Part shown: one piece after another, positions 3,745-64,000 of the stretch | Position numbering within the stretch: the stretch's first letter is position 1 | Layout: every line of letters starts with the position of its first letter | NCBI GenBank assembly: GCA_951406725.2 | Contig: OX597817.1 | Location: forward strand, 100,750,001 to 100,814,000 | Reading direction: 5' to 3' | From: Octopus vulgaris | Lineage: Eukaryota | Length of the DNA stretch: 64,000 nucleotides | Program-made: the position numbers and the translations under genes | Notes under the pieces: generated by a model | Databases searched by the model: none | Seen by the model: only the letters and a program-made list of their open reading frames with translations | What the model was told of the DNA's origin: nothing

Positions 3745-3918
3745 GAAGGCCGGTTTATGGGGTTAACCTGAGTTCCCCGTCCATAAAGGGTTTAACTTTA
3801 TGGCGTAATCATCAGATCCCCAAACCTATAGGCCAACAGTCTTGGGGTCTGACGATACGCCATAAAGTTAAACCTTTTATGGACGAGAAACCCAGAGTAA
3901 CCCCATAAACCGGCCTTC
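3745..3918. repeat. Fold-back inverted repeat (~78-bp arms, 18-bp loop) carrying hammerhead motifs
   Basis: 3745-3823 is the imperfect reverse complement of 3842-3918. Confidence 0.95.
3844..3904 (+). ncRNA. Type I hammerhead ribozyme motif
   Basis: GGGGT-CTGACGA-(CCATAAA...TTTATGG stem II)-GAAA-CCCAGAG-TA-ACCCC; perfect 5-bp stem I and intact core. Confidence 0.85.
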
Positions 3919-8352: not shown

Positions 8353-8904
8353 CAACAACAATAACAACAACAACAACTTCGACAACAATAATAAAGGAGA
8401 TGATAACGGTGATGATGATAATTGAAATGTAAAAATCCCCGAAAAATGTTGTTTACAACATTTCTAAAGATAACCCAACAATTACTGCTTTGGCCAGGGA
8501 AAAAATATAGGTTTCTTGACATGTTCAACAAACCGTGACGCTGAAACCTAACACTAATCAACTTAAATAATTTAGTGAAGTCACACACTGATTGGTCAGA
8601 ATACAGTTTGCAAAAATTAACTTTCTGGAGTCTATGCAAATGTACTTAAGGCACACAGTTTAGCCATCTCACCAGAGTTGTAAATTGCAAAACATAACTT
8701 TCCCCGCTACTACATGAACCTGAAGATTGCATAGTTTAATGCATGAAAGTACTGGTTCAATCAGGATGGACATTTAATATTCTATCATTTCGTTATAGTA
8801 TATTATCTTATATTATATTGTTATAAGATTGTAAATAAAACGTGAAAATCAAAGTTAGAATTTCTTTGAGTAATATATCCTTCTAAAAACAATCATACAA
8901 ACCC

Positions 8905-8969: not shown

Positions 8970-9797
8970 ATATATAAATATATGCCTATATACCTACATA
9001 TGTATGTATATATACATGCATATATAGGTACAGGACATAAAAAAATGTTGAACACAATGAGAAACGAAAACATAAAAACAAACTTAGAAACGAACTTTTT
9101 TCGAACAACGAAAAAAAAAACATAGAGAAACGAGACATACAACATAGAGAATATTCCTCTTCTTCAGTTGTCCCTATTTCATCTACTCCACGTTCGAAGG
9201 CAAGGAGAAGACGCGACTTCGTTGAAACAGTCCTTTCCGCAAAGCAAATTTAATAAAATTTGGAATTTTTTGCGGAGGGTGAAAGTGCTAACAAGAACAG
9301 GGCAGTGAGAACAAAACAGTAAAAACAAACGGTGAGGATTGTCAAGTCGAGACGATTAAAAAATATTTTGAACGCGAGGAAGACGAGCTTATGAAGGAGA
9401 CAGTATAAGCACGTTTTTTCTTTTCGAAGGTTGTGGACAGAAGGACACATTATCTTTCGTCACGAGTCAGCGACGAGAGAATTGAGGAGGAGGATAGTAA
9501 AGGTAGAAGAGTGCGCATCGTAATTATTAAAATAAAACTTACTTGGAAAAGGATGTGTGGCGTTCGATCATATAATAATATATATAATATATAAATATAT
9601 GCCTATATACATATATATATACATACCTACATATATATGTATATATACATGCATATATGGGTACGGGACATAAAAAACGTTGAACACAATGAGAAACGAA
9701 AACATAAAAACAAACACATAGAAACGAGATATACAACATAAAGCATATTCCCCTTCTTCAGTTGTCCCTGTTTCATCTACTCCACGTTTCGAAGGCG
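8965..9797 (-). mobile_element. Partial-tandem non-coding repeat carrying the reversed-order hammerhead-like motif
   Basis: Direct repeats ~8965-9200 and ~9585-9797; related ends at 4380-4445 and 63700-63870. Confidence 0.75.
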
Positions 9798-12832: not shown

Positions 12833-15800
12833 GCCTTATGGCCGTTTCTGGGTGTTAATTGGCCATAAAAATAAAGAGTGTATATACTCATTATTGAGCA
12901 ATTCCCCCTTCTTCAGGGTTAATAGTGGTTGTGCAAGTTCACATTTAGTATGTATGTACATACATGATGGCCATCCACTCATGACCAAGGAAGACCATTG
13001 CTGACCTTTAGGAACATTATGCGCTCTAGGACTTATATTTTGCATTTGCGGCCGCGTTGGTGGCTAATGAGCCCTGCTCTTGACATGTATACACGACTGC
13101 AAACGTTGCAAACCAAGCTTTTCCCATTCACTATGCCAGCAGTGCGCTTTCGAGCAGCACGCTTAAATTCTTCATGAAGAATATGTGCTCATTCAAAGGT
13201 GTTGACCAACTCCTTAACCTGCTTCCTTCATTTGTGGCGATGAAGGCATTGCTCTCCCAGTCGGTCTTCTGCATATCGCAGGCCTTTAATGAGGACTTGA
13301 TAAGTCCTTAAATTGCAGCTTTGGTTTCTGCCGGGTCTCTTTCCACTAACAAGTTCCCCATATAGTGTCTGCTTAGAGATCCTGTTATCCTTCATTCTAA
13401 GAAGTTTTCCAATCCAACATAATCGGTGTTTATGCACCATCGCCTTAATACTCAAGATATCGGCGTTCCTCAAGACGTGTATGTCTGGAGTTTTTAAGGT
13501 CCAGTCGACATTCAGAATGTGTCTCAGACATCTCTGATGGAAGCGTTCAATGATTTTACATGACGTTTGCAAAGGGTCCATGTCTCACATGAGTAAAGAA
13601 GTGATGTCAATACACATGCACGGTACACAGCAATTTTTGTTTACCTTGTGATGTTGTGCTGGGACCAAACACGAAACTCCAGAGACCGGAAGGAATCAGT
13701 TGCGCTCTGCAGCTTGAAAGATATTTCATCATCCAGGGAGCAAGAACGACTGAGTGTGCTCCCCAGGTAGACAAACTTGTCTACCACTTTCAGTATTGCT
13801 CCTTCAACCAAGATAGCTGGTTCCACATATGGATTTCCTGGTGCAGGCTGGAATATTATAACAGTCTTATCGAGGATAATGCTGAGTCCAAATGCCTTGC
13901 AAGAAGCAGAAATACGATTCATAAGTATTTGCATGTCATCCACCGTATAAGAAAATCTATACCTGACATATATTCCCAGAGAGCTAACCCTAGTACAAGC
14001 ATGAGTAAAAGCAACAGAAAAGTACAAAGAAGAGAGAGTTGGAGCGAGGATGTCACCCTGCTTGACACCATGAGTTCCGCTATGCCACCATCAACATTGA
14101 ACCAAGCCTCCATCCCATCATGAAATGATTTAATTATAGATACAAAGTAATCTGGACATCCAAAGTTTGTCAAGTATTTTCCATACCAAGGCCCTATTCA
14201 AAGACCTTGGTTAAATCAATGAATACGCGGACAAGATCCATATTCTGCTCATAGCATTCTGCATCTATCTTGCTGTGAAAATCGCATCCATTGTCCCTCT
14301 ACCAGATCGGAAGCCACACTGAGATTCTGATAGGACATCATTTACGAGACACCCATTCAGGTGGGTAAGAAGAATATTTGCCAGAAGCGTGCCAGCAGCT
14401 GATAGTAGAGCAATACTTCTGTAGATACCACACATTTTTCTGGCACCTTTTCCTTTAAGAGAGGAAAAATAATTGCACCCATCCAGTCCTTAGGCATTAC
14501 ACCATCCTTCCAGACTACACTAATAAGTTCATGAAGGGACTGTATGATGTAATCACTACCAAATCGCAAGTCTTCAGCACAAATTCCATCTCTTCCAGGT
14601 GCCCCACCTATATTCAATTTACTTATTGCTGTCATTACTTCATCTATTGAGGGTGTTGAATTTTTGGAGCCAATGATAGATCTTTGTTGATTATTCTCAA
14701 TCACTGTTTCATCCACAGCTGACTCATGGTTTAGGAGTTCAGAGAAGTGTTCAATCCAGCGATCTGTGATTTCTATTGAGTTAGTAAATAGGGTAGAAGA
14801 CCTTTTGGCAAGAAAAGGAACTGATGCAGAGCTCTTAAGGCCCATAAACTTGCTTCATAAGATGGTAAACCTTCTTGCTGTCATTTGCATCAGTAGCAGT
14901 CTGAACATCACGAACAAGATCCTCCCACCAAGTATTCTGCATCTTCCTGAGAGATCGCTGCAGTAATGATTTTAGACTGCAACAGTGGGCTAGTGCTAGA
15001 TATCGCTGCACATCTGAAAGCCCTCTATGCAGTAATACATTGTGGGCATGGCGCTTTACAATCAATAGTCGCTGAACATCAGCATCATTTTCATCAAACC
15101 AGTCTCTGTGTCTGGCAGTAGCATTTCCCAGTGTTTCAGCAGCATATTGAAGAACCTGATCTCGAAAAATCTTCCCATATTGTAATATTTTCAATGTTGG
15201 ATAAGCGAATCTGAAGCTCTTTCCTCAACACAGCATCATATATCTTGTGGACATTCAGACGCCGAGGATTGCCAACTGGCTCTCTTCTCTCTTTCACTCT
15301 AATCATCATCGGGAACGTTGCTCACACCAGACTGTGATCTGTCCAGCATTCTGATCCACGAAAGGGCTTGACATTACAAATGTCATAGATGTCACGCTTA
15401 CGGATGATAACATAATCTAACAAGTGCCAAATTTTAGAGCTTGGATGCATCCACGTTGTTGAGTGATCTCCTTTGTGCATAAAATGAGTGCTTGCGATGT
15501 AAAATCCATGTTCATCGCAAAGCTCCAGCATCATGAGACCATTGCTATTCATTTTCCCTTCACCAAAATGTCCTAGAGACTTCCATGTTTGCCAGTCTGT
15601 TCCAACCCTGGTATAGAAATCCCCCAGTAGAATGACATTATCAGAATTGGGGATTTTCCTAAGTAAGACTCTCAGCTGGGTATAAAAATTAGTTTTATCT
15701 TCATCACAACTAGTCAAAATAATGCATAGGCACTTATTAGAGTAGCAAGCCGCCCACCTTTAAGGTGCAATCGTAGTCACTAGACGTTCATTTATAGGAA

Positions 15801-17000: not shown

Positions 17001-19059
17001 GGACATACATACATAAAGACATAAATACATACATACATGCATACATACATATATACACATATACATACATATATAATATATATATACATACATACATACA
17101 AACACACACTCACATATAAGCAATTATGATTCAGTTGAATTAGGTACTTAAGTTGAAGCACCAAGTCAGTCCAGTATTAGCCGCACAGCTCGAAGTAAGG
17201 TGAATAAAATCAAAATAGGTAACAGAATGTCAAGTAATAATGCCGTACGACCGTTCCAAGCGACTCCATTTAACGGAACAATGCAATCGTTGCACCAATT
17301 TAAATTAGCGCTATCTTCAGCTGCACAAATATGGATTTTCAACAGATAAGATATATTAGTAAAATGTATTTTAAATATCTTAACAGAGCAACAGGATGGA
17401 AAAATTTCATGTTGTAACTACTGTAGCAAAAATACAGAAGTACAAAACAATAATTTTTAGTGTGGCATGGAACACAGTGGGGTCATAGGGTTGTAATTCA
17501 TTTCCAATTTATGCATCTCCTTATCATCATCAAAAATATACCAGAAGACGGCGTATATTTAGAATAAAGAGCAAAGTGAGTTGATAGCTCATAGCTGGAT
17601 GTTGGTCATGAATTTCATACTATCACAGGTATCCCACCAACCCACAAGAATAAGAAACAAAATTTTAGAAAAAGTGAATTAGATAGTAGTAATTATCCAT
17701 AAAAGAAGGTATGGATGGCCTTACTCCATGATGTGATTATAAGTTAAAGGGGCAAGCACTATGAAACTTAGGATGCTACAATGGGATCCAGAAAACATTA
17801 GGGGTTCAGTGGGAGAACGTTTATAAACAATATTTTAATTTTGTATAAAAATAAAAATAAAATAAAAGAATAGAAATTTTCTTGTAGAAAGGGATATCAT
17901 AACCAAGTTAGCTAAAAGAGATTTGTAGATCAATTTGAACATTAAAAGATTATTATGTGGAATCAACTAAATATCTCATCTTTACTTAATTAATTATTAG
18001 GTGGCCATTATAAAGCTCACCCAAACCATTAATATATGGAATTTATCTGGAAAGGTATACATAATACCTATTGATCGAAAGTAAGGAATCAGAAGCAGGA
18101 TAATAAGATAAATGATAATATGTAGACATAATTAAACATATGTATACAAGAAAAAGTGTGTACTGATATAAGGTGTAGTAGTATAAAAATAAGGCATACA
18201 GATACATATACGAAAAGGGTTTTATGTATACACACACACACATACACACACACACAGACACACACGCGCGCACACACACACATACACACACACATATATA
18301 TATATATACACACGCTTATATAAAGAATATAGTATAATTAATTAGTGTAAATATAAGTAACTGAAAAATATCAATTTAAGAACCATATTGAGCCACATCT
18401 TAACCTACATGCATGCAGAAAGGAGATGCAACATCCCCAACGATTCATAGAATGCTATACCAGTATATGCGAAGATAAATAGGAATGCAAAATATAAAAT
18501 TCGATACCATACAAAATTTTATAATATAAAGGTAAATCATAAAATAAGAGATTAATAAAGTAAACATACCAAAATAAGAATCAAAATAATAACTTATAGA
18601 AAATAATAAGAAATGTATATAAAGATAGTGGATTAAAATAAAATGCAGGAAAAGATAAAAATAACCTAAAAAGGGGTAATAGGTATGGAAATAGTGAGGA
18701 CAGTTTAAGGTATTCATATCGAATTAGTTTTGTAAGTTATAATATTACAGGTGCTATTGTATATATGATTGTATAGCTCTTAGCGGGTATAAAATTTGGT
18801 GAAGGAATACTTACTATCTCAAAATCATTACAAATATACTTAATATGACTGATAGGGTAGAAATTCATAGAAAGAAAGAAGAGTGTAATCAACAAATAGG
18901 ATGAACTCAGGCTAACTAAGCAGGGGTTTTTATCGGGTAATATTACATGTAATACATCACATAGCGTAATACATAGCATATAATATATGTAATGTAACAC
19001 ATTAAACTATATAATATAATATCCTATATTAGAGGGCAAGTTATAAAGGATACGGCGTC

Positions 19060-19494
19060 CGAAGTTAATTTCACGCAAATATAAATAACAGGACATAACA
19101 ACAGGTGTCTTTCGACTAGGGACGAATTAAATTAAGCTGGCGTGTGTGGAAATAAAGCCTTACAGCAAGGTGTGACATTTTTGACTTTTTTTCGTCCTTG
19201 TTTCGTATGCATTTGCTGCTTTCTTCCAAGGAATGTAATGCTCTTAGCTTATTTTTCCTTGGGACTGGCCAGATTGGAGCAATCTCGTGTATAACCAGCC
19301 GAAATTGCAAAGATAATATGGAACTCGACTGAGGATAGAAAACTCTGAATGATCCGTCCTTGTTTTCCTTGTATCGTCTGTCTGGATATTTTGTTTTACC
19401 TATCTGTGTGGATGTTTTGTGTTCTTGTCCCATTTTTGTATTTTTTATATATAAAATATAGCGGCGTATGTACACTTTGGTCTCTTATATGTAA

Positions 19495-19495: not shown

Positions 19496-19536
<41 letters not shown>

Positions 19537-19541
<5 letters not shown>

Positions 19542-21063
19542 TAAGGAAAAATTTTTTTTAAAATGCAGAATGCTCAAATGAAAGAAAATTTTAATAAAAT
19601 GAGAAATTGATAAAATATATAAATATATATTTATTCAACCGGTTTTCGTCATTGTATGACTTGTCAAGAATATTTATGTTTTAAAAAGTTTTTTTAAAAA
19701 TTAGAAAGGGGAAAAAAAGAAAATTGCATTGTTTTTTGTAAAAGAATAATGATAAAAATGTACAAAAATTAAAAAATAAGTTCTCCGATACATTGTGAGT
19801 TCGTTGTGTATCTTGAGTTTTATGGTTGTTTACGAAAAAATTACCTTGAGGTGTTAAGATCCAAAGGGATTAAGAGCATGTGTTGTGTTGTTAAATTCAG
19901 CATGTTTGCAGGACAGGAAGTAGTAGTAATTGTGGTCCTGGTTCTTCAGTTCCTGTGTTGTGAGTAAGGGGAGACAACTCTTTTGAGTTGCCAACATAAT
20001 TATGTTGGACAAACGAGTCTCCCGTTACGTAAACGAGTAACGGTGCATAAAGAACAAATAAATCTCCCGGAATACCGACAAATTCCACTGAGTGACCACT
20101 TAGACTCATGTGCTAAAGACTTAAACCCCAAATTCTATATATTCCCCTTCTACCAATGTAAAGACGGGATCACCACACAGGAGAGAATTAACAAGGAGAA
20201 TCTCTTTATTGAAAAATTCCAAACACAACTTAATATGCAAACTCCTCGTTGATCAAACTTCCTTTCTCTACCTCACTCTTCATGGATGGACTAACACAAA
20301 TATATAAAGATACCATGCATTCATCACTTCAAGCTAAAACTTATATTCTTTAAATATCATTTTTACTATTGTTGTTATTACTATCATTTTTATTATAAAT
20401 GATATGACAATTTGAAATGCAATTGTCTATGCAGATTTATATAATTAGAAAATAATATAAATAAAGTGTTAAAATCTGAAAGTTAAGTTAACAAGCAATT
20501 ATATAAAAAAGATAACGCAAATGAAGCTAAAATGATAATTTTATAATTTGGGTTTTATTGAAGAACTCAAAAGAGTTGTCTCCCCTTACTCACAACACAG
20601 GAACTGAAGAACCAGGACCACAATTACTACTACTTCCTGTCCTGCAAACATGCTGAATTTAACAACACAACACATGCTCTTAATCCCTTTGGATCTTAAC
20701 ACCTCAAGGTAATTTTTTCGTAAACAACCATAAAACTCAAGATACACAACGAACTCACAATGTATCGGAGAACTTATTTTTTAATTTTTGTACATTTTTA
20801 TCATTATTCTTTTACAAAAAACAATGCAATTTTCTTTTTTTCCCCTTTCTAATTTTTAAAAAAACTTTTTAAAACATAAAAATATTCTTGACAAGTCATA
20901 CAATGACGAAAACCGGTTGAATAAATATATATTTATATATTTTATCAATTTCTCATTTTATTAAAATTTTCTTTCATTTGAGCATTCTGCATTTAAAAAA
21001 AAATTTTTCCTTACTTATCATTTCTCCACGTGCGGTCAACACAACCCCACCATTTATTGAACT
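19537..21063 (+). mobile_element. Young truncated Penelope-like element with inverted pseudo-LTR
   Basis: 19537-19989 is a near-perfect reverse complement of 20564-21018. Between them lies the GIY-YIG C-terminus (YVGQT...RVTVHKEQI...LN, 19990-20252). Confidence 0.93.
20883..20923 (+). ncRNA. Minimal hammerhead variant with U3-A8 core; inverted copy near 19633-19673
   Basis: TATTC-TTGACAA-GTCA(TACAA)TGAC-GAAA-ACCGG-TT-GAATA. Confidence 0.75.
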
Positions 21064-23354: not shown

Positions 23355-23682
23355 GTATTTGTGATTCTCTTCTGTGTGTATTCTAATGACGTGGCAAAGC
23401 ATTACTAAATGCAAAGTCAGAAATCCGGGATCTAGAATTATCCAGTAATTTTTTACTAGTTTTATCTTCTCTCTTTGTTTTCTCTTCGTGTTGATATACG
23501 GACAATTAAGGTAGTTTTAGAGTCAGATCATGGCTGCTATTTTCAGCATGGTGGTATCTCGTAAATACCCTAATTTATAACTTTAATAATTATTACCTTT
23601 GAAGGTTATTTTTTTCCATGCTGACCATTTGATAAAATCGTTATTCTATTTTTAAATTAACGATCTTATCCTTATTTATATA
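22635..23682. repeat. Three copies (one inverted, two direct) of a pLTR-like repeat
   Basis: The block GAGTCAGATCATGGCTGCTATTTTCAGCATGG occurs at ~22665-22696 (reverse), ~22990 and ~23520. Confidence 0.9.
22758..22816 (-). ncRNA. Type I hammerhead motif; second copy with mutated core at 23380-23438 (+)
   Basis: ATTCCA-CTGACGA-G...GAAA-TCCGGGA-TC-TAGAAT; the second copy has the perfect stem I ATTCTA/TAGAAT. Confidence 0.75.
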
Positions 23683-41509: not shown

Positions 41510-43331
41510 ATGGACCAGCATTTTCCTAGTCTGGAAACGCTAGGAGAAAAAAAGAACTTATGCACGCAAAATGCAAACCTGAATGACGTGGTAGTGAACG
41601 CTGCAACCACTTGCGGTAACAGCCCTGTCACCACCACCACTAACAACAACAACAACGAGACTACTACTGCTACCCCCCCACACCACTTCCACCACCACCA
41701 CCACGACCAACATAAATGATAAAAATGAAACTCACGCGAATACTATTAAGAAAAACAACAACAACAACAAGAACAACAATAAAAATGAACTATCTAATAG
41801 TGAAGATGTTAATATAAAAGAATCAACAACACCAGTAAATTTCGCTGACACTCTGCGTCAGAAAAAAGAAATTGTAAAATTTACAAATGAAGAATTAATA
41901 GAAACGAGAGCTCTCTTTACAACCCGAGGGCAAGATTTAGTGCTGCATACACCTCAACACATAAAGGAACAAATAGAAAATAAGACAATTATATATAAAA
42001 TTATAAGAAAAAACAAAAAACAAAATGAACAGATTACAAAAACGGATATAGAAAAATGTTTAAAAAACATAATGAAAAAAAAAGAATATATAAACTGGGG
42101 TCCCCAGTTTAACACAGTAGTGGTCCGCTTCCCTAACCAGGAAGTGGCAAAAGCTCACTCTACCGAGTCTTTGGAAAATGATGATATCAAAATGGTACCT
42201 TATTACAAAGGCCAGTGAGTGAGTAGAATTACTATTAAAAATGTACCCCCCGAGATCCCGAACAAATGGATAACAGGGGCAATCTGTTACCAATTGAAAA
42301 AGAAAAATATTTTAGAAACCGCCGTGTACCTAAACGACAATTGGGGTGGAAAAACAATAGTAGTGACCATCCAGATTGAGGGGGCCTCTATCGAGAACCT
42401 ACCCGATAGGATCCACTTAGAAAATGGGCAAAGCCTATATGTTGTGGCAGAAGGCAAAAAGCCTAGATGCTACAACTGTGGCAGCCCAGAGCATTTAATT
42501 GCCAAGTGCGCTCTGGCACAGAAAAAACAAGAAAGAACAAATCAGAAAACAAATAAAAAACCCTTGTTGCCAACACCAACACCAACACACTCAATTATGG
42601 AACAATGCCAAGAAAAACAACAAACCAGCAAACAAACCTCAACAATATCACCAAGAAAAGAAACAGTACCAACACAATCACCGTTAACGTCGCAACTAAT
42701 TCATCATGCTGAACCAAAAGATAGATCCACACCAACACCAAGGACGACAATTAAAAAGACAGAAAACAGTGACGAGAAGACAAATTCTACCCCTAACACC
42801 ACAACAACACAAACACCGCACAAAACATCAACAATTTCTACAAGCATACATATTAACGCAAATGCTTTGCCTTTACCCCCTTCTGATACGTCGGACAACG
42901 AAAGTTCGACGGAATGGCAAATAGCCACAGGGGGTACAAGGAAAATATCAAAAAAGCCCACCAAACAAGGAAGTAAAGCAGGGAGATATTTAACTCCGGA
43001 CAGCATCTCCCTAGACAATCAAAAAATCAATGAACCCGCAAAACCACACACACAACTAACTGCAATAGACACAGACAATAAAAAATTAATGGATTACATT
43101 GCATACAACACGGACATCTGTGAAGATGACTTTAAGACAAACAATCATCCGCGCACCACACCACCGAAACACATAAGAATTGTACACATAACACAAACAC
43201 TACACCATACACTGAAAACAATATTTCCAAATGCGGTAGGCGGGTTTCAACGATACCTCTCCAAAAAACTATACAAACACCTCATCAAAGACACTACAAA
43301 AGAAGAAGAAAAAAATGAACTTTCGAAATGA
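41510..43331 (+). pseudogene. LINE ORF1 (CCHC zinc-knuckle nucleic-acid-binding protein), disrupted
   Basis: CYNCGSPEHLIAKC knuckle; in-frame TGA at 42216 and further lesions upstream. Confidence 0.85.
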
Positions 43332-43405
43332 GTAAGTGACCTTCCCTCTTGCCTCTTGTCTCTACCAATGTAGTGTGTGAAACACAATTTTCGTAAACGT
43401 CAATT

Positions 43406-46400
43406 ATGCTTAAATTAGGTTGTGTGAATGCGCGTGGCTTGGCGTCGGCTTGGAAGCAAGGTTACCTTCTAAACGACATCAAGTCACTGAACGTGGATAT
43501 AGTAGCTATCAGTAAAACCAGACTCAGCAAGCCGCGGGCCCTCGCGTCCATGTTTGGCGATCAATTTGACATTTATTTTTCTCCCTGTCTGCCGAACATG
43601 GGTGGTGGAGGTACCGCGGTGCTTTTTCGAAAGAGTCTAAATGTAAAAGTAAGAACAATATTCCTAGACCCGGAGGGTAGGCTGGTTGTCTTGGACGTGG
43701 ATGGCAGAAATGGGTGTGCATTCCGTCTGATGGCAGTTTATGCACCGTCCTTGACGGGTCGGGCGGATTTCTTCAGACGTCTAGAGGTTTTCCTGGGTAC
43801 GTCTAGACCTTTACTGTTAGTAGGGGATTGGAACGATACCTTGGACACGCATCTAGATTATGTGGGAATGGATAGGAATAGAAGGGGGTGTAAGTGCCTC
43901 AAAGACCTACTCAGACGTTTCCATTTGTCTGACAGATTCCGACTCGCCCATCCGAACTTGCCAACGTGGACTTGGACAAACCGCGTCGGATCGTCGAGAT
44001 CTTATCTAGACAGAATTCTATGCAGGACAGCGGATAGGGATAGTGTAGGATGTCCAAAATAGTCAGCTACACAGATCACAAATTTGTGACGTGTGCGCTC
44101 GACTTAGATAAGACACATAGACAGGGTCCCGGTTACTGGAAACTGAACACGTCGCTGTTAGCGCGACAGGTTTACAGGAACCGGATTAGCGAGTTAATTA
44201 ATTGGGCGCTGACGGGAGCCGTCGTTAACAACCGCTGGTGGTTCGCCCTGAAAATGGCAATAACATCGGAATCAATTAGGTTTAGCAAGGAATTAGCGAT
44301 AGTTAAGAAACTAGAAGGGGCACTTACCACTGGCAGCGCAACCAACGTGCTGGTTGCGAGTATGGCCCTCGACCAACACCTCAACGCCAAGCACAAAGGT
44401 TGCGTCGTCAGAGCTAAAATGCGTGCCTTAAGGAACGAAGGGATCGAAGCTGCGCGAGGGGCCTGGGTAGCGGAGGCGCAGCGTGGCAACAGAGCCACCA
44501 TTCGATCTCTAATAGATCAACAGGGATGCAGTTTACTCGAACCCGAAAAGATGTGTAAGGCCTTTCAACAGCACTTTGCTCGACTGTTTGGTGCGAGTGG
44601 TGGGTCAGAACGCGGGATGGATTTCAGTGCTGCGCAAGGGATAAGTCGCCTGGATTGGATGGTTTACCCTACGAGCTGTATTGTCAAATGCCAGACTTGT
44701 TTGGCGACCTCTTGGCATCTGCAACTGGCAACAAAACGGGAGAATCCCCGGTTTCGTGAGCCGAGGTGCAGTGACGTTGCTGAAGAAAGACCCAAACAAG
44801 GGAAATTTTATAGATAATTTCAGGCCCATCACTCTGCTCAACGCAGATTTGAAAATTTTGGCCAAAGTAATAGCCGAAAGGCTGACGCTTGTCATTGGTA
44901 AACTGGTCGACTGGGCGCAAACATGCGCCGTGCCGGGCAGAACCATACATGACAACCTCCATCTGATGCGCTACATTGTGGACAGGGTAGTTAAGGATCC
45001 TGGCATGGGTGGGGCGCTGATCAATTTGGATCAGTCTAAAGCCTTCGATAGGGTCGACCATCGGTACTTGGCGGCCGTCCTCAGAGCGGCTGGCTTCGGT
45101 CCCGTCTTCCGCGGTTGGATCGCTGCCTTGTATAGCGGCATCCGATCGGTGATTCGGGTGAACGGTCACATGTCGAAACCGTTTGACATCACGCGTTCGG
45201 TCCGTCAGGGATGTCCCCTGTCGGCGCTTCTGTATGTATTGACTCTCGAGCCGCTACTGCGGAAGCTGGCAACACTGAGGGGCATCCCACGGGAACTGGG
45301 TTGCGGGACGAGCGTGTCGGCATATGCGGACGATGTCACCGTCATAGTGTCGAGCGACAAACACATCTAGATGATAGGCGAGGCACTAAGAAAATACGAA
45401 ACGGTGATGGGAGCGAAGATTAAACCGCAAAAGTCAGTGGGTTTGCTACTCGGCAACTGGAGAAGCAAGCCCATGCCGTCCGACTGCGGCTCAGTAGCGG
45501 GACGCTGGACGGACGGACCCGTTAAATTGCTCGGGGTCTGGTTCAGTCCGGACCTCCAAATAGATAAGAACTGGGACGAGATCACGAGTAGAGTGGTCGC
45601 TCTCAGCCAAACATGGGCCGAGAGAAAGCTGTCTCTAAAAGGCCGGGCGGAGGTGGCGAACGCGTACATCGCATCCGTCATCGATTACCGCCTGACCGTC
45701 GTACCTTGTCCCGACGCCACCATCATCAAACTGGAACGCATACTCTTCCGCTTCCTGTGGAAGGGTGGCGTTCCGATGGTGAGGAAGTCCATTTGCTGTC
45801 AACATCCGTTGAATGGAGGACTGGGCATGCCGTGGTTGATGATGCGCAGGCATGCGCTGAGACTGTGGCATCTCTGGAACTTCATCGACGACGGTGAACA
45901 GGTGTGGGCGCCGTTTGTGAGGCGCGCCTTCCCGCAGCTCGTCTCACTGACCGAACTGCAAACGTGGATCAAGAAGAGACCGAAACTGGGCGATTGGCAC
46001 TGAGAGTGTCGCCAAGCTCTACAGCAGCTCTGCCGACCGGGGTCAAACTTGTGCAACTTACAAACGACTAAAGCGTTCTATAGAGGACTAGTGGAGGGGA
46101 GGTCCGACGACACACTCGGGGCAAACCTGGGCGTCGACGAGAAATTCCTAACCCGCCTGTTCAGGACGACGTTCGGGCCGGGGCCTATGGATAACTTCCA
46201 GAAATCCCTGGCTTGGCAGTGCTATCGAGACGCACTACCTGTTCGAGAGAAGAGCTACAGACACGGTTCGAAAACCATCACCGGACCGACCTGCCCGAGA
46301 TGCGGTCAGAGCGACGAAACCGTTCTGCACGCACTCGTGCAGTGTCCAGATATTTCAGAGCTGTGGACCTTCGTCGAACAGCTGTTGTCACGTGTAGGTC

Positions 46401-46700
46401 GGGCCCGCCTATCGGCTGAGTCTATCGTGAATATTGTTCCACCACCTTCCTTTAAACGGGAAGGGAAAACGGTTTTCGTTACGCTGATGGCTATGACGAA
46501 AGAATGTGTGTGGTGGACGCGTTTGAAAGGACTGCAAACAAACACCTTCCTCTCTGGTCAGTCTCTCGTCAACTTTTTTGAAAAGGAGGATGAGAATAGA
46601 GAGGAAGGCTTTGTCGAACGAATGTTTTAATAAAAAGTGGGTAAAAGTGGCAAAAATGGCCAGTATGAAAGACGACACTATTTTAAGCATAAATCTGTAA
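43406..46700 (+). pseudogene. LINE ORF2 (APE endonuclease, RT, Zn domain) with a few stops and frameshifts
   Basis: NARGL, VYAP, GDWN, SYLDRI, TDH, YWKLN; FRPITLLNAD, LDQSKAFDRV, VRQGCPLS, AYADD; CPRC...H...C; stops at 45368 and 46001. Confidence 0.95.
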
Positions 46701-48561: not shown

Positions 48562-49570
48562 TAATAATAATGTTCGTCCTTCGGTTCGAAGATGACCAAC
48601 TGACATCATCTGATGGAACTGGCGCCATGAGACCGGAGGTGGCTGGTGAGGCCAATCCGGGCAAGGAAGCCCCTCCCACAGGTGGGGCAGAAGTGGGTAG
48701 GGGCCGTGCTACTGGTGCAGGCGGCTCTGGCTTTACGCATCTGACGTTTCTGCTCCGCTGACCGAATCCGTCCCTCCTCGGCTGTCCCTGCTCCCACGGT
48801 GATTGCGCTGCGCCAGGATGAGCGGTTGGCAGCAAGGGTCTCCCAGGTCTCTGTTCCGATGGAGAAGTCTTTGAGAGAGACCTTGAGACTATCCCTGTAG
48901 CGCTTCTTCTGCCCTCCGACTTTGCGCCTGCCCTGGCCGAGTTCACCGTAGAAGAGCTGTTTTGGGATGCGAGTGTCGGACATGCGGGAGACGTGGCCCG
49001 CCCATCTCAGCTGGGCCTTGCGCATGATTGTGATGGTGCTAGGGAGATCTGCCTGCTTCAGAACTTCCGTGTCTGGGACTTTGTCCTGCCAGCGGATGTG
49101 AAGGAGGTTCCGAAGACACCTGAGATGGAAGTGGTATATCTGGCGCTCGTGCCTTCGGTAAGCAGTCCACGTCTCGCAGCCGTATAATAGGGTGGTAAGC
49201 ACGACTGCCCGGTAGACTTTCAGCTTGGTGTTGAGGCTGATTCCTCTCCGCTCCCAGACTTTCTTTCGCAGTCTCCCAAACGCGCTGCTTGCCTTGGAGA
49301 TTCTGTTGATGGTTTCAGCATCTATGTTGGCATTGCAGGAGAGAGTGCTGCCCAGGTAGGTGAAGTTTTCCACCACTCGTAGGATCCGTCCGTTCACCCT
49401 TATCTGAGGCTCATGGTATTGTTTGCCGGGGGCTGGCTGAAACATCACTTCGGTTTTCTTGGCACTGATGGTGAGACCGAAGTTGTCACAGGCTGATGAG
49501 AACCTGTCCATCTCGAGCTGCATCTCCTGCTCATCGATTGCATTAAGGGCGCAGTCGTCAGCAAAGAGAA
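48562..49570 (-). mobile_element. Young 5'-truncated RTE-clade LINE with an uninterrupted ORF (48606 to ~49570)
   Basis: LFADDCAL, KKTEVM, FTYLGS, LLYGCETW, LRWAGHV, CPTC...GLTSHLRSH; short 3' UTR and (ATT)n tail. Confidence 0.95.
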
Positions 49571-49845
49571 AAAATTCAAGACTCAGTCTTCCGCGGAAAA
49601 GTGATGCTAACCCTCTTTTGAGACTCAAAAGGGCCTATACTAGAAGACTACCTGGCTGTAGGCAAAGTGTTCCAGTACCTCAAAACCCAATAGGTTAATG
49701 GTTTCAAAGGTCTGGGTGGTTGTGTGTGTGTGTGCATTGTTACGCAACAACAAAACTTTCTTCGGCAATAGACTACAGCGTTTGGTGCGAACTGTTGGCT
49801 TCAGTTTGTTGGCCAGCAAAGCACTGTATCTTGCACTGTTGACTA
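49569..49845. pseudogene. Mariner transposase fragment with an internal inversion
   Basis: Plus strand KFKTQSSA/KVMLTLF*DSKGPILEDYL (49569-49655); minus strand VNSARY...VLLLRNNA..H...GFEVLEH.AYS (49653-49845). Confidence 0.8.
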
Positions 49846-63699: not shown

Positions 63700-63870
63700 T
63701 ATATACGTGAGTACAAGACACCACAATTAGGCGTAGAACTCAACGAGAAACGAAAACGAAAAAACAAGCATGGAACGGACCTTTTTTTTTAACAACAAAA
63801 AAACTGTGTACAAGACAAACTACACAAGGAAAAATCCCCTTCATCAGCTGTCCCTAGTTCAACTCCGTCG
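63700..63870 (-). repeat. Truncated relative of the 8965-9797 repeat
   Basis: Minus strand GGAGTTGAACTAGGGACAG-CTGATGA-AGGGG matches AGGGACAA-CTGAAGA-AGGGG. Confidence 0.7.
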
Positions 63871-64000
63871 ATTCGATTCGATTCGATTCGTTTCCTTTCG
63901 TTTCGTTTCTCCTTCTCCAAGTACAGTTTTTATATATAATTATGACGCGAAACTCTATTACTCTTTGCTTGACCTTCCCTTTCTCTCTCTCTCTCTCGCC

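Follow-up and report, generated by a model that had tools for sequence, protein, structure and literature searches.

A predicted split-core hammerhead ribozyme in an abundant octopus repeat and its probable link to Naiad Penelope-like elements

The six-type scheme of hammerhead ribozymes, as set out in the sections of PMC10085705 consulted, assumes that the CUGAnGA word and the two stem strands that flank it (block C) are inseparable. A very high-copy, non-coding repeat of Octopus vulgaris raises the question of whether a hammerhead can be built with this block broken open and, if so, what kind of element would carry it. The copy studied here lies at 19076..19490 (+) of a 64,000-nucleotide stretch of contig OX597817.1 (assembly GCA_951406725.2, positions 100,750,001 to 100,814,000), hereafter the window; its right edge is the end of the stretch analysed by reads, and a (TA)n run follows at ~19496-19539. 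The window is AT-rich and microsatellite-laden, and holds six GIY-YIG fragments of Penelope-like elements along with LINE fragments. We predict, with good but not overwhelming confidence, that the repeat contains a self-cleaving hammerhead with a split core, likely serving the terminal repeat in a Penelope-like retroelement of the Naiad type or in a non-coding element derived from one.

All parts of the motif are on the plus strand, where the hammerhead blocks follow one another from cleavage site to GAAA to CUGAnGA (S-G-C order) on 19279-19335. The core bases are all present: CUGAnGA at 19329-35, GAAA at 19301-04 and the NUH triplet at 19282-84. Block S (19279..19290) consists of a stem III strand, an AUC triplet ending at 19284, after which the cut is predicted, and the 1.x strand of stem I. 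Block G (19295..19308) consists of the 11.x strand of stem II (C11.1 = 19300), GAAA and the second stem III strand, with CCGAAATTGC at 19299. The 2.x strand of stem I and CUGAGGA (C3-A9) occupy 19323..19335, with no stem II strand after them. The pieces named by a sequence-only reading of this DNA, the AUC triplet among them, are all where they were said to be, with GCAATC at 19279, TCGTGT at 19285, ACTCGA-CTGAGGA at 19323, CCAGATT at 19269 and AATATGG at 19315, and the helices claimed for them pair in the window letters at 5/5 positions in stem III, 5/6 in stem I, 6/7 in an outer helix (O) and 8/8 in an upstream hairpin (H). Its model of the architecture holds for these helices but missed stem II, whose partner is upstream, and a sixth helix, X.

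The 10.x strand of stem II (19263..19268, G10.1 = 19263) lies upstream of the cleavage block and pairs with 19295-19300, at 5/6 positions in the window letters and 6/6 with the majority letter of the mapped reads, G, at 19264; the six-helix scanner chose the same pairing. Helix X is formed by 19220..19225 and 19336..19341, the latter directly after A9, and closes the domain (5/6 in the window, 6/6 with majority A at 19336). Hairpin H (19226..19262; arms CCAAGGAA at 19226 and TTCCTTGG at 19255) forms its eight outer pairs with no linker to the X 5' strand or the stem II strand. The strands of helix O are 19269..19275 and 19315..19321, and majority C at 19318 brings it to 7/7, as majority A at 19288 brings stem I to 6/6; stem III is complete in both sets of letters. 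Counting G10.1-C11.1, the motif forms 34 of 38 pairs in the window letters and 38 of 38 in the majority letters, and stems I, II and III surround a core with U16.1-A15.1 and G10.1-C11.1. That this fold is real we regard as very probable.

The strands are strung in the order X5'-H-II-O5'-III/AUC/I-II'/GAAA/III'-O3'-I'/CUGAnGA-X3', with five crossing helix pairs in the architecture common to this repeat and a second family near 9.2 kb, and with zero-base junctions X-H, H-II, II-O and core-X in both. A9 (19335) is not contiguous with G10.1 (19263), either directly or through one or two bases, and helices X and H bridge the gap. Read from 5' to 3', helix O comes after the 10.x strand and before the 2.x strand, exactly where the stem I-II helix of type SGC and CSG hammerheads stands, and for this reason we read the motif as SGC/CSG circularly permuted, with the opening placed within block C at the A9/G10.1 linkage. 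Published hammerhead descriptors permit one extra U between A9 and G10.1, so this linkage tolerates a bulge. To our knowledge there is no working hammerhead with a backbone break at A9/G10.1. An Rfam covariance-model scan gave 113 matches at E up to 1, none of them a hammerhead family or ribozyme. A canonical type I/III reading from the hairpin and the CGAAU after 19335 was rejected by eye, because A15.1 and a partner for stem I are both missing.

Part of the stretch is present in twenty listed sequencing runs filed under six organism labels, with no RNA run recorded among them. Three DNA runs and one RNA run were mapped onto 18800-19490. Contig depth rises from ~500-2000 to as much as ~1.5 million (summed) from 19064-19088 onward in 3/3 DNA runs, whereas single listed contigs have a depth of roughly 40-70; the summed depth is no copy number, and the data suggest a copy number in the order of ten thousand. 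In the 64-kb window the repeat is a single copy. Loose ends are found at 19076, and opposite-strand joints connect 19076 with 19201 (5' inversion). An 11-base direct repeat (19194-19204 and 19355-19365, 161 bases apart) flanks the ribozyme domain, and in all runs loose ends accumulate at 19201, inside its left unit.

Variant counts refer to 40 of 220 variant rows, the other 180 being outside them. Among these 40 rows, six majority differences fall inside 19220-19341. Four of the six mend the sole mismatch in X, II, I and O, and the other two turn one G-U, the inner pair 19235/19252 of hairpin H, into C-G, the one two-sided change seen within the family among these rows. Core positions are unchanged in all 40. 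The letters at 19288 and 19318 mend stem I and the outer helix, which had been named before the reads were mapped, and those at 19264 and 19336 complete stem II and X, which had not; at 19336 the majority letter is A in 3/4 runs (~25%, 63%, 80% and 70%). Such repair is a sign of a perfect ancestor, not of covariation. Failure of other copies to keep the pairings had been named as grounds for giving up the motif; the copies of this family retain and repair them.

The minimum-energy fold of the majority letters holds X, H, O and III together (-46.2 kcal/mol). The window letters form neither X nor O in their minimum-energy fold, and so the window copy, in which four helices have a mismatch each, is probably inactive or cuts slowly; we think it unlikely that this particular copy would be active. 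With z-scores of -0.62 and -0.86, the nested folds of the two window copies are unremarkable, and at 19.3 kb the opposite strand gives the better fold (z -2.30), which counts against the ribozyme reading.

The second family has the same six-helix order at 9156..9280 (-), with X at 3/5 pairs, H 7/7, II 4/6, O 9/10, I 5/6 and four stem III pairs beside the core; its site is GUC, with the predicted cut after 9210. The core nucleotides, strand order, outer helix and upstream hairpin had been said to be the same in the two families, and they are, except that GAAA is one A short in the 9.2-kb window copy. A partial sister copy at 9796 keeps GAAA, and sister copies supply GAAAC and mend further pairs in X and O. 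One sister, a 5'-truncated tandem copy with intact GAAAC (9570..9797, -), gives the family a pseudo-LTR-like arrangement; a third copy, also 5'-truncated, lies at 63707..63876 (-) with an inverted piece at 63910-63969. The truncated copies align from 8 and ~12 bases past the predicted cut, respectively, and these truncation points (n=2) fit templates that start at the cut and also fit a reverse transcriptase that stalls at the pseudoknot. At the 5' junction of the third copy (63876-63910, -), before the inverted piece, a G-block-like pentamer is reiterated several times, as if reverse transcription had stuttered.

Between the families, 35 base pairs can be registered, of which 18 are changed on both sides, one is changed on one side, seven are the same and nine are broken in one or the other of the two decayed copies. 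The claim that every stem differs in sequence is contradicted by the seven identical pairs and by the domains themselves, which are alike at 73 of 116 aligned columns; because they align to this extent, the two families are distant kin. The larger claim, that compensatory change keeps one hammerhead-type architecture in two diverged families, is borne out by the 18 two-sided changes.

What carries the motif can be approached through Naiads, a group of Penelope-like elements that target (TA)n, lack canonical hammerheads and in some cases have half cores (Craig et al. 2021, PMC8557442, sections consulted). Of the Naiad consensus file we covered CTGATGA places 1-55 of 62, CTGACGA places 1-15 of 23, CTGAGGA places 1-15 of 25, CTGAAGA places 1-30 of 43, and part 25; pairings were read by eye, and the counts are lower bounds because line ends hide matches. 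In these passages the split-core wiring is seen in at least 11 of 54 Naiad consensus 3' ends, in 8 sequence families with other helix sequences. Headers and file order identify Naiad_Bfor, three near-identical Acropora elements, Naiad_Obim (Octopus bimaculoides), Naiad_Ovul (O. vulgaris) and Naiad_Esco (Euprymna), and four more can be placed by file position only, among cnidarians and arthropods. Naiad_Bfor has a stem I of just 2-3 bp, with X and part of H out of view, and Naiad_Esco is partly decayed, with stem II at 4/5. CUGAnGA was not visible in the 3' ends of Naiad_Adux and Naiad-1_Skow, and in the part of the file viewed no core was seen among bivalve Naiads. Six other consensus sequences, including Naiad-1, -2 and -3_Nbra, were read by eye as type CSG with a long stem I-II helix (File S5 of PMC8557442, parts 13-17), and one as a contiguous SGC with a long insertion.

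We consider it quite probable, on this shared architecture, that the motif of the two window families is Naiad-derived, and the families themselves are probably non-coding derivatives or tails of unsampled Naiads, linked to them by architecture only. A real ribozyme on another carrier, either a non-Naiad Penelope-like family or a free retrozyme-like repeat, is compatible with the split-core fold and is the strongest of the alternatives, if an unlikely one. It draws on the window itself, where a Naiad ORF (N-terminal GIY-YIG, CxC and DKA motifs, C-terminal RT) was not found beside either family and five of the six GIY-YIG fragments are at the 3' end of their elements, and on the description of Naiads as remnants in cephalopods (PMC8557442, in part), set against the great abundance of the 19.3-kb repeat. 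The setting of the two families, at (TA)n runs and with partial tandems or inverted 5' pieces, fits that described for Naiads, although other Penelope-like clades share these traits. Nine of their short motifs are absent from the Naiad consensus files as searched, where line ends can hide matches. Against another carrier, the passages viewed show the split wiring in no file but that of the Naiads, and the Hydra, Penelope and Chlamys rows viewed in the hammerhead table are canonical type I.

If the motif acts as we propose, X, H, O and III would form a nested scaffold on which stems I and II dock later as pseudoknots. X would stack end to end on H and so bring A9 and G10.1 side by side, as if through a short tolerated bulge, and helix O would stand in for the stem I-II contact. 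A transcript of tandem copies would fold the domain and cut after H17 (19284), dividing the precursor. Division of tandem precursors by hammerheads has been proposed for other Penelope-like elements, with their pseudo-LTR hammerheads. About 24 bp (X, II, O and III) would hold the products together, which would favour slow release or re-ligation. Self-cleavage of the motif we judge likely. With less assurance, on a balance that tips moderately in its favour, we suggest that this is a seventh natural hammerhead wiring, its core cut open at A9/G10.1 and held by a coaxial two-helix clamp, that it is active in Naiads from comb jellies to octopus, and that the split-core, CSG and SGC forms go back to one reversed-cycle ancestor as its circular permutations, interconverted by tandem pseudo-LTR duplication.

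The fold may instead be real and not cut unaided, being a terminal-repeat signal, such as a binding site for an element protein or a held-off state, that needs protein or has lost cleavage; we give this a somewhat lower chance than a different carrier. The single RNA run (raw reads) gave 934 reads, in both directions about equally, with no site where many molecules begin or end, and the absence of an end at the predicted cut agrees with an inactive fold. Such an absence neither supports nor refutes cutting, because the canonical Penelope hammerhead likewise left no RNA-seq ends and needed protein in vitro. That canonical ribozyme did not cut unless its protein was present, and insertion in vitro did not require the ribozyme (PMC11167929, sections consulted), which itself favours dependence on protein, as does the unprecedented split core. 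Exact C3-A9, G12-A15.1, U16.1-H17 and G10.1-C11.1 in diverged families would, however, be hard to keep without catalysis, and related Naiads carry uninterrupted CSG and SGC forms of a class shown to cleave (PMC10085705 and PMC8557442, in part).

An ordinary type SGC hammerhead, whose stem II strand after CUGAnGA was lost to decay and whose upstream pairings are fortuitous, would explain the S-G-C block order, and in the 9.2-kb copy the bases after CUGAAGA could, by eye, pair with the stem II' strand. We think this very improbable. When at least 3 bp were required, no stem II strand 3' of CUGAGGA was matched in the 19.3-kb window copy, and majority letters in the variant rows listed create none. 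With majority letters the upstream strand pairs 6/6, the bases after the core pair 6/6 with the X 5' strand, and the upstream pairing was likewise seen by eye in the Naiad consensus sequences viewed. A self-cleaving motif with an upstream stem II remains our preferred reading.

How often such a motif would arise by accident was addressed with several controls. A relaxed S-G-C descriptor without stem II matches once in the window, compared with 0.02-0.08 times per shuffled 64 kb (100 shuffles), and 2-7% of shuffled windows contain it; taken by itself, the core therefore exceeds chance only modestly. The six-helix descriptor, designed after both sites had been seen, has only two matches in the window, with scores of 75 (19.3 kb) and 72 (9.2 kb), and the best of 200 block shuffles reached 58. 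The shuffled-sequence control proposed at the outset is passed clearly by the full descriptor and by the core only modestly (2 to 7 per 100 shuffled windows). With core and hairpin H kept and the flanks shuffled, 1/1000 (19.3 kb) and 3/1000 (9.2 kb) reached the observed score. In real DNA, an S-G-C core occurred in 4 of 124 loci picked for their G and C blocks, with scores of 42-62; a viral scan with generic G and C words gave 123 loci and no split-core case, and a metagenome scan gave no match to the 19.3-kb pattern and one to the 9.2-kb pattern (L001), which was rejected as a GC-rich chance match without a cleavage block. The possibility that the motif is a chance match, or was left behind by local inverted duplication in AT-rich repetitive DNA, has the relaxed core in shuffled windows in its favour but is practically negligible given the pairing repair and the descriptor, flank-shuffle, between-family and real-DNA controls, and five crossing helix pairs are impossible from one inverted duplication. 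Four of the viral loci (L045, L046, L025 and L026; two pairs of copies) are ordinary type II hammerheads by eye, and such pairs in phage contigs are spaced ~1-1.4 kb.

The window holds other features of the same general kind. A 5'-truncated Penelope-like element at 19537-21018 has its GIY-YIG tail (19986-20240) inside an inverted pair (19537-19989 and 20564-21018; 455 bp, 99% identical), in which CUGAAGA occurs at 20604 with a possible stem I and no placeable GAAA block. Motifs resembling canonical minimal type I hammerheads, with palindromic stem III, were noted by eye at 8712-8765 (+), ~26590-26540 (-), ~22820-22755 (-) and ~23380-23450 (+), each either following a C-terminal GIY-YIG frame or lying in an inverted repeat with (TA)n flanks; that near 8720 has G at the cut position. 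A type I scan of the window gave scores of 27 and 31 against a shuffled best of 31, with no separation. Both strands of a long near-perfect inverted repeat at 3778-3885 carry CUGAnGA, at 3849 (+) and 3815 (-). Pieces of a broken LINE (zinc knuckle, endonuclease, RT and zf-RVT) are spread over 42219-46630 (+), and two fragments of another LINE-type RT lie at 48606-49628 (-) and 13228-14027 (-).

By the stated rule, none of the three hammerhead blocks can be interrupted; the split core would break it. The non-circular permutations, known from a few hundred environmental RNAs, would also become very high-copy residents of animal chromosomes; if this is true, non-circularly permuted hammerheads are abundant in animal genomes and are not rarities of viroid-like RNAs. 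The proposal gives the puzzling lack of a ribozyme in published Naiad retroelements an explanation that can be tested directly. Designers of RNA switches would also have a use for a ribozyme with clamped products and, at A9/G10.1, a natural port for insertions.

Among known hammerheads the nearest are types SGC and CSG, and the statements on them here rest on the sections of PMC10085705 (Eckert 2023) consulted. Type SGC was validated in vitro and found only in metatranscriptomes, type CSG was reported from two metagenome sequences, and, one weak GCS case apart, no RNA of the permuted set was found in genomes of known organisms. The reversed order that the sequence-only reading described is thus itself a published class; the novelty lies in the split core, in the occurrence in animal genomes and in the link to Naiads. 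The literature covered, which excludes most subscription papers and bioRxiv supplements, contained no split core and no permuted hammerheads in Naiads, and described SGC and CSG only in the 2023 paper. No precedent for a helix inserted at A9/G10.1 appeared in the parts of PMC3088659, PMC10162972 and PMC13725137 consulted; the last reports variants with additional helices, which are not traceable there to A9/G10.1.

The motif shares with SGC and CSG the reversed cyclic order of site, GAAA and CUGAnGA blocks and the multiple pseudoknots. SGC and CSG ribozymes with an O-type helix cleave in vitro and require the stem I-II helix, and the motif has, as type SGC demands, a helix tying the distal stems I and II, namely O (7/7 in majority letters, 9/10 in the second family). 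The linker between stem I and stem II strands is 4 and 2 nt in the motif and typically 3 in SGC/CSG. Unlike either type, the motif has block C broken at A9/G10.1, carries the extra helices X and H and occurs in animal chromosomal repeats. Its stem II strand is upstream, whereas in type SGC it is directly 3' of CUGAnGA; lacking this one defining feature, the motif is, as far as its letters tell, best filed as a hammerhead variant. It resembles the minimal type I hammerheads of Penelope pseudo-LTRs and non-LTR retrozymes (PMC4209133; bioRxiv 10.64898/2026.07.22.740005; both in part) in genomic role, position and core bases. In those sources the blocks of the minimal type I run C-G-S, its stem II is a hairpin and its stem III is short and palindromic, whereas the motif has a full stem III within one molecule and no hairpin stem II. 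Compared with the Naiads themselves (PMC8557442, sections consulted), the window families have no ORF in the window and no match among the short motifs searched in the Naiad files, and no hammerhead fold was reported for Naiads there; they agree with Naiads in lying 3', in targeting (TA)n and in showing partial tandems and 5' inversions, and Naiad_Ovul and Naiad_Esco, both marked as half-core, show the split wiring by eye.
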